This document shows positions 6,539 to 42,783 of a stretch of DNA of 64,000 bases, piece after piece; position 1 is the first letter of the stretch, and every line of letters starts with the position of its first letter. A program made the translations under genes and the position numbers. The notes under the pieces are model-generated. The model made no database searches and was not told where the DNA came from. It saw only the letters and a list, made by a program, of their open reading frames with translations. The stretch is from assembly GCA_018655525.1 (NCBI GenBank), contig JABIJM010000008.1, forward strand, positions 20,836 to 84,835. The letters run 5' to 3'. Origin of the DNA: Candidatus Woesearchaeota archaeon (lineage in GTDB: Archaea > Nanobdellota > Nanobdellia > Woesearchaeales > GW2011-AR9).

Positions 6539-6553
6539 CAGAAAGTTTATAAA
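6539..6553 (+). promoter_or_regulatory. BRE/TATA promoter of the RNase P RNA
   Basis: agaaag followed by TTTATAAA, about 25 nt upstream of the predicted P1 helix. Confidence 0.45.
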
Positions 6554-6577: not shown

Positions 6578-6908
6578 GTAGTGGTAGCAGAAAGCGTAGG
6601 GTTTTGAACCCAGGAAAGTCCGCCCATTGAGTATCATGGTTACCTTTGAAAGAAGGGTGGGGAAATCCCACAGCTCTGGATTAGAAACGACACGTCCTAT
6701 AAAATTGGAATGATTGGAAGTCCTAATGGCGAAATTATTTGAGAAAATAATGAGTTAACTCCTTGACGTCTTTATAGGGAACGATGAAACGGCGAATCTT
6801 AACCAATGCAAGTCAGTTTGACGCTTAGTAGAATGCTTTCATGGATCATCGCAATCTTTTAAGGTTGTTTGGGTCCAACAAAAGGTGGCTTATGCTGCCC
6901 TACCAACT
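6578..6908 (+). ncRNA. rnpB: RNase P RNA (archaeal type)
   Basis: Conserved P4 5' strand AGGAAAGUCCGCC (6612-6624) and P4 3' strand ACAAAAGGUGGCUUAU (6878-6893). The GGUGG/CCGCC pairing is compensatory. A terminal helix pairs UGGUAGCAG at 6582-6590 with CUGCC..CUACCA at 6895-6905. No long ORF on the + strand; only antisense ORFs overlap it. Confidence 0.6.
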
Positions 6909-36864: not shown

Positions 36865-37260
36865 TTATCCTAATACCTTATTTCTAATAATAGAACTTTT
36901 ATGTTGATGTGTTTTGTATGGTTGTCCACGTAATACGGGTAAATTAAATTTTTCTTTTAATAATTTTTCAATTGGAGGATGATCATATCCTAAAAAAATG
37001 ATGTCTGGTTTTTTTTCTTCAATAATTTTAAAATGATCTTCTTGATTTCCTAAAACCGCTTCATCTACTATTTTTAAACTTGAGATTAGTTGTAACCGTT
37101 CATGTTCGCAGAATGCAATGTCTTTTTGTTCTTGTTTTTTAGTGGAATCTCTGGCTAAAACAACAATCAGATAATCGCCATGATTTTTTGCTTGTGTAAA
37201 ATAATCTAAATGGCCAATATGTAATAAATCAAATGTTCCAAAACATATTACTTTTTTCAT
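36865..37260 (-). CDS. ribL: Cytidylyltransferase-fold nucleotidyltransferase, archaeal FAD synthetase RibL-like
   Basis: GTFDLLHIGH (HxGH). Collinear with M. jannaschii RibL (VLARD, FLGYDH, LRGQPYK). Overlaps the downstream gene by 4 nt. Confidence 0.6.
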   Translation of the reverse strand: MKKVICFGTFDLLHIGHLDYFTQAKNHGDYLIVVLARDSTKKQEQKDIAFCEHERLQLISSLKIVDEAVLGNQEDHFKIIEEKKPDIIFLGYDHPPIEKLLKEKFNLPVLRGQPYKTHQHKSSIIRNKVLG

Positions 37261-39305
37261 TTGTCTGTTAATTTAGCTTTATGAATTATTAATCTTCCGG
37301 AACAAGATGAATCCATCACAATCTCTGTGTCTAAAAGTTCTATCTTTTTATTGAATAATGGACAATCCAACACAAGAGATTCAAATTCTCCGCCTTCACC
37401 ATTTACCATAATTCCTTTTATATTGTTTAATTTATGTAATGTGTCTTCAGTTACAATTTGATTTAACCAAGAATCATCAAATCCGTCTGCAGCTACTGCA
37501 GACAAGACAAATGTAAATTTCTGTTGTAATAGTTCTTTCATTTCTTGTGCTGGGTCCTTGTGCCATAATGGAGAAAATATTTTTAATCCCAATTTGTCAC
37601 AAATTTTTTCTATACGGTCTCGTTGGTATGTTGAAAATACTGCGCCGGAAACCACACCTTCAATTTTGTATGTGTCTTTCGCATTCTGTAATGCTAACTC
37701 TAAATCTTGAAGTTCTGTTTCTTTTTCCCCTTCTGTTTCTTGCTCTATTAAAGATAAATTCATTGCTTCTGCTTGTAATTCAACCATATTGACAGATGCT
37801 GTTTGAAACATATAAGAATCTGGATTTTTTGATTTCATAGTAATTAAACATGTTAAATCATAATTCTGTCGTTTCATAATATGTGCTGAGTAACATGAAT
37901 CTTTACCAGAGCTGAATAAGACGCCTAATTTGACATTATGTGAAGGATAAAATTGTTTCAAGTATTCGGATTTTGATTTTTGTTCTTGTTTTGCAAGTTT
38001 CCCTAATGCAAAATCAAATTTGCTTCCATATTGTGCAGCTGTTTTCTTTCTGAATGCAAATTCTTTAGAAATTCCTTTGGATTGTGCAATGTCACGAAGT
38101 ATGAATTTTGCCGTTTCTTCTTTGATTTTATGTTCTTCTGGAATTTTAAGAGAAAATTTTGCTAAATTTCTATCTAAGAATGGTAAACGTAATTCCATAT
38201 TTTGATCCATTGTGATTACATCATCTCTGTATAAATCGCGTTCATACATTTTTAATAAGCCTGAAACACATTCTTGATTGATGTTTGCAGATTTTTTATG
38301 ACGATCATATCCTGCAAAAATTTCTTCAGAACCAAGACCAGAGAAGATTACCTTACATCCATCTTCTTTTGCAAGTTCACATGCAAGATAGAAAGTTAAC
38401 GCAACACCTACTTTCACAACGTTAGAATCTTCAATTAAAGGAACGATTTTTTCTAAGTAAGGTTTGATTTCTTCAATGGTTACTTTTTTAATCTTTAATT
38501 TTAAACCTAATTCTTTTGCAACTGCTTGTGCTGCAACGAGATCTGAAGGATCTTTATTTTCCGTATCTAAAACTGCCGTGTAACAAGTGAAATCGTAGTT
38601 ATTGTCCTTAAAATGTTTTGCAAGGAACGTTGAATCAATACCTCCAGAGAATAATAAGCCAAATTTTTGGTTTGGAATTCGTTTTTCAATTGCTTCGCTA
38701 AGTAATGTTTCTGTTTGTTGTTTTAATTCTTCATAAGATTCTTGATGTTCAGGGAAGTATGTTACAAATGTCCTATTCTTGAAAGATATTTCTTTTGTTT
38801 CTATGTTATATGAAAGAATACTTCGAGGATTTAATTCTTGTATGTCAATATAACCGAGTTTTTCCAATACTTTCTTTTCTGATGCAAATGCAAATTGATC
38901 TCTATTATGAATGAACCACAAAGGTTTTACACCAAATAAATCTCGTGCCAAAATTACAATGTCATCTTTGATGTATGCAAATGCAAATACGCCATCTAAT
39001 TCTTCTATATGATGATTTTGATCTAAGAATTTTAATACAAGTTCTGCATCATTTTGCGCATTGAGATTATATTTTTGTGATAATTCTTTCCAATTATAAA
39101 TTTCGCAGTTTGCAGTAAGGATTCCTCCTTCTTGTAACGGTTGTGGCACATGATTGACAACTGCGTGTAAAGTATGTCCAATGACTCCTTCTTTAAGTTC
39201 TAAGATTTTAGAAGCATCTTTTCCCCTATTTTTAAGAATAGCTAACGCTGTTTCTACTTGTTGTTTAGCCTGTTCATGATGAAATATTCCTATGATGCCA
39301 CACAT
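37257..39305 (-). CDS. Asparagine synthetase-like glutamine amidotransferase fused to a C-terminal Dph6/MJ0570-like PP-loop ATPase domain
   Basis: N-terminal Ntn Cys (MCGIIGI), AsnB PP-loop SGGIDS, then a second PP-loop SSGKDSCYSAHIM...EGVVSGAVFSTYQRDRIEKICDKLGLKIFSPLW...GEGGEFESLVLDCPLF, typical of diphthine-ammonia ligase-family proteins. Confidence 0.7.
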   Translation of the reverse strand: MCGIIGIFHHEQAKQQVETALAILKNRGKDASKILELKEGVIGHTLHAVVNHVPQPLQEGGILTANCEIYNWKELSQKYNLNAQNDAELVLKFLDQNHHIEELDGVFAFAYIKDDIVILARDLFGVKPLWFIHNRDQFAFASEKKVLEKLGYIDIQELNPRSILSYNIETKEISFKNRTFVTYFPEHQESYEELKQQTETLLSEAIEKRIPNQKFGLLFSGGIDSTFLAKHFKDNNYDFTCYTAVLDTENKDPSDLVAAQAVAKELGLKLKIKKVTIEEIKPYLEKIVPLIEDSNVVKVGVALTFYLACELAKEDGCKVIFSGLGSEEIFAGYDRHKKSANINQECVSGLLKMYERDLYRDDVITMDQNMELRLPFLDRNLAKFSLKIPEEHKIKEETAKFILRDIAQSKGISKEFAFRKKTAAQYGSKFDFALGKLAKQEQKSKSEYLKQFYPSHNVKLGVLFSSGKDSCYSAHIMKRQNYDLTCLITMKSKNPDSYMFQTASVNMVELQAEAMNLSLIEQETEGEKETELQDLELALQNAKDTYKIEGVVSGAVFSTYQRDRIEKICDKLGLKIFSPLWHKDPAQEMKELLQQKFTFVLSAVAADGFDDSWLNQIVTEDTLHKLNNIKGIMVNGEGGEFESLVLDCPLFNKKIELLDTEIVMDSSCSGRLIIHKAKLTDK

Positions 39306-42603: not shown

Positions 42604-42708
42604 GTGGGGCTACCCGGATTCGAACCGGGGTTCAGCGGCCCCAAACCGCTAGTGATAGATTACTCAAATAGGAGTTTTACTCTTATTCTCCAAGCTACAC
42701 TATAGCCC
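42604..42708 (-). tRNA. tRNA-Pro (anticodon UGG) containing a roughly 30-nt non-canonical intron in the D-arm
   Basis: Acceptor GGGGCUA/UAGCCCC plus discriminator A. T-arm CCCGG-UUCGAAU-CCGGG. Anticodon arm AGCGG-UUUGGGG-CCGCU (U33, UGG, G37). The 105-nt gene has the extra sequence between the D-loop (AGCUUGGAGA) and the 3' D-stem (UCAC). CCA is not encoded. Confidence 0.6.
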
Positions 42709-42783
42709 CAATAAGCTGTTTATAAAGGTTTTGCTTATTTTTGATTTATTGTGAACCTTTTTAAAAACCTTGTGGTTTTTTAG

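Follow-up and report, generated by a model that had tools for sequence, protein, structure and literature searches.

The 64,000-nt stretch of DNA analyzed here (the window; G+C of ∼32%) carries a tRNA gene within the gene order M24 peptidase, tRNA, L37ae, RpoP, prefoldin beta, UPF0147, MscS, and DRG-type GTPase, with the L37ae start codon 23 nt downstream from the tRNA. The order M24 peptidase, tRNA, L37ae, RpoP, and prefoldin is common to relatives. The L37ae protein was found on contigs of many samples, including GCA_018672075.1, with an identical tRNA on all of them. Among its named homologues, the closest belong to Woesearchaeota or Nanoarchaeia MAGs, and the nearest genome match among the matches listed is a Woesearchaeota MAG (L060). 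The host is an archaeon of Woesearchaeota type, within DPANN. A permissive Rfam scan of the whole window returned the tRNA-Pro and an archaeal RNase P RNA gene (6578–6903, plus strand, 141.7 bits) as sole matches. Other Rfam matches in the tRNA region (snoR29, rox2, 6A, and others) fell far under their gathering scores and were discarded as chance hits. Elsewhere in the window (37257–39305, minus strand), a 682-aa ORF joins an asparagine-synthase-like part (GATase_7, Asn_synthase) to a C-terminal Diphthami_syn_2 (diphthamide-synthase) part. The tRNA gene is placed as follows:

42605..42709, minus strand: complete tRNA-Pro(UGG) gene with intron, 105 nt (Rfam tRNA model and sequence)
42641-42643, minus strand: anticodon UGG (proline) (Rfam alignment and ARAGORN on the spliced sequence)

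Identity of the tRNA gene

The Rfam tRNA model RF00005 aligns over all of its 71 positions with 44.3 bits, above its gathering score of 29 (E-value of 2.8e-08 in a 501-nt region and 3.6e-06 in the whole window). The acceptor stem and the T and anticodon arms are all intact, and the 7-nt anticodon loop (UUUGGGG, with U33) gives the anticodon UGG; the score, the loop, and an ARAGORN call on the spliced sequence together identify the proline isoacceptor UGG. The minus strand 42605–42709 spans 105 nt including the intron, and the RNA reads GGGGCUA UA GUGU AGCUUGG (AGAAUAAGAGUAAAACUCCUAUUUGAGUAA) UCUA UCAC U AGCGG UUUGGGG CCGCU GAAC CCCGG UUCGAAU CCGGG UAGCCCC A. The gene has A73 as its discriminator and does not encode CCA; CUUUAU follows directly 3′ of it. 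What sets this tRNA apart is its D-loop span of 38 nt, versus four in the Rfam model.

Six additional contigs, from other samples, carry an identical tRNA gene (seven with the window), and orthologues sit in the same gene order, so the match is not due to chance; the locus is confirmed as a real tRNA-Pro(UGG) gene. An earlier note, made from the sequence alone, had described a tRNA-Pro(UGG) with ∼30 nt of extra sequence in the D-loop. The Rfam score, the anticodon loop, and the 105-nt length agree with this identification, and the Rfam alignment agrees on where the excess lies. There is a gene at the position given (42604–42708), one base off from the true coordinates, and the strand, which the note did not state, is the minus strand. 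The expectation that scanners would overlook such a gene was also correct: ARAGORN without intron search reported zero tRNAs in the whole window, and an Rfam search at default filters missed the tRNA-Pro(UGG) gene as well. ARAGORN with intron search called the gene tRNA-Ile(aat), which we rejected as a false call.

Comparison with related genes places the intron at position 19/20

We assembled a comparative set through a one-genome-per-species scan for GGGGCNNTAGTGTAGCTTGG (the 20 nt of the 5′ exon, with any base allowed at positions 6-7). The scan hit at least 119 stretches and yielded at least 123 (approximately) distinct tRNA-Pro-like sequences, mostly tRNA-Pro genes and covering all three isoacceptors. 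Among the matches listed, most sequences came from Woesearchaeota or Nanoarchaeota MAGs, and 111 genes could be parsed, 67 without and 44 with a D-loop insert; one of the 44 (L117) was a parsing error. The insert directly follows G18-G19 in 43 of these 111 genes.

Comparison with ∼120 related tRNA-Pro genes places the window's intron at position 19/20 of tRNA-Pro(UGG), dividing the gene into the following parts:

42690..42709, minus strand: 5′ exon, tRNA positions 1-19, GGGGCUA UA GUGU AGCUUGG (bulge-helix-bulge geometry and intronless orthologues)
42660..42689, minus strand: intron, 30 nt, AGAAUAAGAGUAAAACUCCUAUUUGAGUAA, between G19 and U20 (comparison with intronless relatives)
42605..42659, minus strand: 3′ exon, tRNA positions 20-73, UCUA UCAC U AGCGG UUUGGGG CCGCU GAAC CCCGG UUCGAAU CCGGG UAGCCCC A

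Exon 1 ends in ...AGCUUGG (G19) and exon 2 starts with UCUAUCAC. Removing the intron yields GG/UCUAUCAC, an exact match to the D-arm of an intronless relative (L028); the D-arm of the spliced product, GUGU AGCUUGGUCUA UCAC, is that of this relative throughout. The same D-loop occurs in L012, whose syntenic tRNA-Pro(UGG) is intronless (D-arm GUGU AGCUUGGUCUA GCAU, Rfam 53.8 bits), with UCUA followed there by GCAU and in the spliced product by UCAC. Excision restores a normal tRNA with an architecture identical to that of the intronless orthologues. ARAGORN, which the earlier note had proposed as a check, returned nothing on the unspliced gene and called the 75-nt spliced product tRNA-Pro(tgg) (listed at 76 bases, including one C at the end).

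Self-splicing group I or II introns have a catalytic core of hundreds of nucleotides. The insert here is 30 nt long and matched no Rfam intron family even at E ≤ 10, placing it outside both groups. We also considered a C/D-box guide RNA within the intron and rejected it, as 30 nt leave no room for one and the boxes are absent.

The splice junctions fit a relaxed bulge-helix-bulge motif

The strict form of the archaeal splice motif, hBHBh′, consists of two 3-nt bulges on opposite strands with exactly 4 bp between them, each adjoined by an outer helix. The relaxed form, HBh′, has a central 4-bp helix and one canonical 3-nt bulge with a flanking helix, and cuts fall two bases 3′ of the helix strands. 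We calibrated the cleavage rule on the canonical 37/38 intron of a related gene (L052) and then applied it to the D-loop. In the calibration gene, the helix joins bases 32-35 to intron positions -6 to -3, the 5′ bulge is made up of bases 36 and 37 and the first intron base, and the 3′ bulge of the last two intron bases and base 38; the rule reproduces the known 37/38 junction of that intron. Applied to the window, it gives the following elements:

42692..42695, minus strand: helix H, 5′ strand, exon G15 C16 U17 U17a, pairing with intron GAGU
42662..42665, minus strand: helix H, 3′ strand, GAGU, intron positions -6 to -3 (RRGY motif)
42689..42691, minus strand: 5′ splice-site bulge G18 G19 / A, 3 nt; predicted cut between 42690 and 42689
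42666..42688, minus strand: intron hairpin h′, GAAUA.GAGU / ACUC.UAUUU, loop AAA (minimum-free-energy fold; 5+4 bp)
42659..42661, minus strand: 3′ splice-site bulge A A / U20, relaxed; predicted cut between 42660 and 42659

Helix H (GCUU:GAGU) is formed by two Watson-Crick and two G·U pairs, and its GAGU strand lies 2 nt before the 3′ splice site. Hairpin h′ adjoins both the 5′ bulge and helix H, with five pairs set directly against the 5′ bulge versus 0.66 expected in shuffles. On the 3′ side, C52 faces A14 after AA/U, leaving no adjoining outer helix as the strict hBHBh′ form has; pairing U53-A54-U55 with A14-U13-G12 would make the 3′ bulge 4 nt. The 4-bp helix, the bulge GG/A, and the adjoining hairpin h′ are those of the relaxed form, and this model of the precursor supports assigning its junction to the HBh′ type of bulge-helix-bulge motif. 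The exact 3′ cut is uncertain by one base in the model, and the product could be 74 nt. The earlier note had anticipated a bulge-helix-bulge at its own junctions. None exists at exactly those positions, and the relaxed HBh′ motif found 3–4 nt away is the one structure that reproduces the intronless D-loop.

The junction structure is conserved and covaries across related introns

The 43 D-loop introns among the matches listed are 17–68 nt long and otherwise unrelated in sequence. A 4-nt partner of GCUU is nonetheless intact (four of four pairs) in 37 of the 43 among the matches listed, with 94.6% of cells paired. This partner, always 2 nt before exon 2, reads GAGC in 25 of the introns among the matches listed, GAGU in six, AAGC in four, and GGGC in two, and the 3′ bulge bases are AA in 29 of the 43. 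A single unpaired base followed by a hairpin of at least 3 bp is found in 32 of the 43 (among the matches listed), compared with ∼0.7 bp in shuffles. The predicted starts of exon 2 (among the matches listed, CUA in 19, UA in nine, and UCUA in eight) mirror the D-loops of intronless genes, the commonest of which are UA (15), UCUA (14), and CUA (13).

For covariation analysis, we aligned 42 junctions without gaps, anchored at both splice sites and with an AAAA linker replacing the intron interior. Paired cells made up 90.8% of this alignment versus 69.4% in shuffles, none of the 500 shuffles reached the observed value, and slid controls gave 28%–49%. The first four pairs of h′, all those tested, covary across the 42 introns, with changes on both sides. 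The conservation and covariation of the junction structure across these 42 introns implies selection for excision.

Three loci (L060, L133, and L135) carry close variants of the window intron. Their differences from it are confined to the intron and leave the hairpin in place, and one (L060) turns the A:C mismatch of the hairpin into an A-U pair. Two of the three (L133 and L135) are new variants from a metagenome scan for more GAGUAA-type introns, which returned four loci; the other two (L134 and L136) are mutually identical and both carry a D-loop intron of the L065 type.

Folding energies and alternative boundaries

The minimum-free-energy fold of the naked RNA (-41.5 kcal/mol) adopts a different register, U13-A, A14-U, and G15-C, followed by U17-A, U17a-A, and G18·U. 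The bulge-helix-bulge register comes to -34.0 kcal/mol, ∼7.5 above the minimum, with the pairs of H at ∼2.5% probability, and only 18 of 45 related introns show H in their local minimum-free-energy fold. Folding predicts this UAG/CUA pairing for the spliced tRNA as well, in which it is ruled out by tertiary structure. The energetic disfavor of H is thus partly an artifact of neglecting tertiary structure, and we set aside the free-energy fold, which shows no bulge-helix-bulge, as a guide to the splice motif. An alternative 3-bp register, U17-U17a-G18 (UUG) with CAA, leaves 86.5% of cells paired, and covariation does not decide between it and H because the exon strand never varies. We prefer H because it explains the conserved RRG, fits the known substrate geometry of the enzyme, and alone predicts exon ends like those of intronless genes.

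Boundaries taken directly from the minimum-free-energy fold would be ...UUGGA / AUCAC or, with a one-base shift, GGA/.../CUAUCAC, giving a mature tRNA of 73–75 nt with the D-loop AGCUUGGAA or AGCUUGGACUA. The pairs U17-A50, U18-A49, and G19-U48 do form with high probability in this fold, ARAGORN accepts the 73-nt product as tRNA-Pro, and ACUA D-loops occur in a few intronless genes (L032, L048, and L055). Yet the supposed 3′ bulge, CUA, is then base-paired, so that no bulge-helix-bulge exists, and the conserved RRG of the GAGC motif is left without explanation. The shifted boundaries moreover predict mostly AUA D-loops for the 74-nt class, found in one of 17 intronless genes, against 13 of 17 for the CUA of the bulge-helix-bulge rule (among the matches listed). 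We regard these boundaries as improbable.

A disrupted tRNA or pseudogene, whose insert is never removed while another gene decodes proline through UGG, is slightly harder still to credit. Both exons are intact and identical on the seven contigs, the syntenic locus of relatives holds a tRNA-Pro(UGG), the intron variants alter only intron bases and preserve the hairpin, and the splice-site structure is conserved and covarying across the 42 introns. The junctions of the earlier note (...GGAGA/ and /UCAC, so that exon 1 ends with AGCUUGGAGA, exon 2 starts with UCAC, and the intron sits beside the 3′ D-stem strand) lie 3–4 nt from G19/A and A/U20. We judge them very improbable: their product is also called tRNA-Pro by ARAGORN, but they lack a flanking helix or bulge, the UCUA before UCAC is conserved as exon in intronless orthologues, and a D-loop ending in GAGA was seen in none of the 53 genes without a D-loop insert among the matches listed. 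That the 30 nt persist after maturation, forming an enlarged D-loop or an additional arm, has the stable hairpin as its sole argument and can practically be dismissed, given that the insert would separate G18-G19 from A21 and disrupt the D-loop/T-loop interaction, and that its free length (17–68 nt) and sequence among close relatives, next to a fixed junction motif, fit an excised element.

Intron states in relatives

The syntenic tRNA genes of relatives differ in their inserts. A close relative with 92% identical L37ae (L007) has the same exons apart from U20, which is absent from its predicted exon 2, and at the same site bears a 54-nt insert unrelated to the window's 30-nt intron. Another syntenic gene has a T-loop insert only (L013), and a third has inserts in both the D-loop and the T-loop (L010). 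Across the relatives, tRNA-Pro genes reach lengths of 140–265 nt with up to three inserts each, and further inserts were seen at 37/38, in the T-loop (∼59/60, UUCAAA/.../UCCGGG), and in the T-stem (L010, L013, L046, L109, L034, L080, and L073). The long D-loop introns of seven genes (L007, L038, L039, L049, L065, L073, and L123) contain an internal hairpin, UUGCUC...GAGCAA, that competes with the exon's GCUU for pairing to the GAGC motif, and the simple model does not fit their fold.

We noted several other features of the set. Some tRNA-Pro(GGG) genes have the anticodon loop CCGGGGC or UCGGGG/intron/A and hence C33 in place of the near-universal U33; such genes are found without introns (L035, L096, L098, and L101) and in other loci (L024, L050, L056, L059, L094, L087, L129, and others), and in the intron-bearing ones C33 pairs with an intron G in the central helix. 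Five Hadarchaeota MAGs (L025, L045, L081, L100, and L107) have tRNA-Pro genes with long anticodon-region inserts that contain UGAUGA and CUGA boxes, resembling the C/D-box guide RNAs of some archaeal tRNA introns. One near-identical relative (L133, positions 835–910) has an insertion of ∼55 nt with a hairpin (CCAAAATAAAGCC...GGCTTTATTTGG) between tRNA and L37ae. Many MAGs labeled "uncultured Methanosarcinales archaeon" (TPA assemblies; L015, L016, L019, L026, and others) contain a Woesearchaeota-type tRNA-Pro, in many cases with L37ae downstream, and judging from these sequences the labels are probably wrong.

Promoter-like boxes upstream of the tRNA

Two promoter-like boxes precede the tRNA gene:

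42719..42726, minus strand: palindromic TTTATAAA box, preceded by purine-rich BRE-like AAAACC, -17 to -10 from the tRNA 5′ end
42758..42767, minus strand: distal TATA-like box TTTTTAAAAA, -58 to -49 from the tRNA 5′ end

The proximal box recurs at a fixed -17/-16 to -10 at related loci (L007, L010, L012, L013, L020, L026, L029, L031, L060, L061, L065, L084, L102, L114, and others). Among the matches listed, it was found at 22 of the 30 loci with L37ae after the tRNA versus none of the 78 loci without; another three loci with the box were too short for scoring. The same box lies 30–32 nt before the RNase P RNA 5′ end (6546–6553), where the BRE/TATA box (6540–6553) is at the canonical -32. Applying this spacing to TTTATAAA at the tRNA would put the start near A14, inside the tRNA. 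By its position, the box is too close for a canonical archaeal tRNA promoter, and it may instead be the promoter of the L37ae(-RpoP-prefoldin) operon, overlapping the tRNA gene. The distal box is a candidate promoter of the pre-tRNA that would give RNase P a leader of ∼27 nt to remove; a similar distal box is present at related loci at variable distance.

Proposed processing of the precursor

We consider it highly probable that this Woesearchaeota-type archaeon has here a functional tRNA-Pro(UGG) gene, split at G19/U20 by one 30-nt protein-spliced intron with an HBh′ motif. In the proposed precursor, G15-C16-U17-U17a would pair with intron GAGU in a central 4-bp helix. The 3-nt 5′ bulge would consist of G18, G19, and the intron's first base, with the intron hairpin stacked directly behind it, and the last two intron bases, AA, would make up the relaxed 3′ bulge with U20. 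The archaeal splicing endonuclease (EndA) would then cut after G19 and after the final intron A, and an RtcB-type RNA ligase would join the exons into a normal 75-nt tRNA with the D-loop AGCUUGGUCUA. RNase P would trim the 5′ leader, with CCA added later; the RNase P RNA gene in the window shows that this organism processes 5′ leaders. What the sequences themselves show is the gene, the place of its intron, the conserved and covarying structure, and orthology with intronless genes. The cleavage, ligation, leader removal, and CCA addition are drawn from established knowledge, and we infer them together with the promoter in use and the production of the spliced tRNA. A search with the M. jannaschii EndA sequence, a weak test, gave no EndA-like ORF among those of the window or in 0.97 Mb of related loci, and the window yielded neither an endonuclease nor a ligase gene.

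Relation to known tRNA introns

The closest precedent is the D-loop HBh′ intron of the Methanopyrus kandleri pre-tRNA-Glu(UUC), which is cleaved in vitro (Kaneta et al. 2018, PMC5829648). Like the window's intron, it is a short D-loop intron with a canonical 3-nt bulge, a 4-bp helix, a flanking helix, and a relaxed second bulge. Cleavage by the archaeal splicing endonuclease was shown there biochemically, whereas it is predicted here; its downstream fragment starts at A21, in contrast to the 19/20 site of the window; the tRNA and the host phylum differ; and the M. kandleri tRNA-Glu also has a canonical intron, whereas the tRNA-Pro here has the D-loop intron only. The canonical 37/38 intron and the window's intron have a cleavage geometry in common, a 4-bp helix with cuts placed two bases inside either bulge, a rule obeyed by the relatives' 37/38 intron (L052). 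The canonical intron lies in the anticodon loop rather than the D-loop, and it is in the D-loop intron that the 3′ bulge and outer helix are relaxed.

Noncanonical introns of Crenarchaeota and Nanoarchaeota occur at 20/21, 22/23, and 25/26 (within or next to the D-arm), 59/60, and other positions (PMC4090602; for Thermoproteales/Crenarchaeota, also PMC4033280). Those of Thermoproteales/Crenarchaeota are, as here, bulge-helix-bulge-dependent and outside the anticodon loop, with up to three introns per gene, a recurrence of related introns at shared sites of different tRNAs, and rapid gain and loss. Their crenarchaeal hosts differ in having (alpha-beta)2 endonucleases with a Crenarchaea-specific loop, whereas the host here belongs to DPANN. 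Disrupted tRNA genes known from DPANN include the split tRNAs of Nanoarchaeum equitans, and ARMAN-2 has an epsilon2 EndA (PMC5829648, PMC3239211); an alpha4 EndA with an "L3" loop is found in Woesearchaeota and Pacearchaeota (PMC5829648). In DPANN, a marked rise in noncanonical and multiple introns has been linked to endonuclease loop insertions, and some genes escape prediction (PMC5829648), consistent with the earlier note's view of noncanonical introns as typical of a few archaeal lineages. The relaxed-specificity endonuclease that it also called for would be expected by analogy with the DPANN literature. That survey treats the same superphylum with one Woesearchaeota genome and does not describe the tRNA-Pro D-loop intron family. 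Earlier publications thus already cover noncanonical D-loop introns as well as the association of DPANN endonucleases with disrupted tRNA genes; a non-exhaustive literature search turned up no mention of the 19/20 position or of the tRNA-Pro GAGC-AA family.

Implications

A practical consequence is that, with the intron unrecognized, the genome appears to be without a tRNA-Pro(UGG). We also entertained the broader idea that position 19/20 of tRNA-Pro is a Woesearchaeota-wide hot spot for the repeated insertion or exchange of unrelated introns, in a tRNA that is also overlapped by a second conserved BRE/TATA promoter. This is speculative and on balance rather unlikely; if true, it would imply active intron mobility, with docking through the fixed GAGC-AA / GCUU helix. 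The comparative set shows the speed of intron turnover in DPANN genomes, an incremental gain on a principle established already. Its dozens of introns, unrelated apart from a conserved GAGC-AA motif that faces one invariant exon strand, amount to a clean natural experiment on the upkeep of a relaxed bulge-helix-bulge site.
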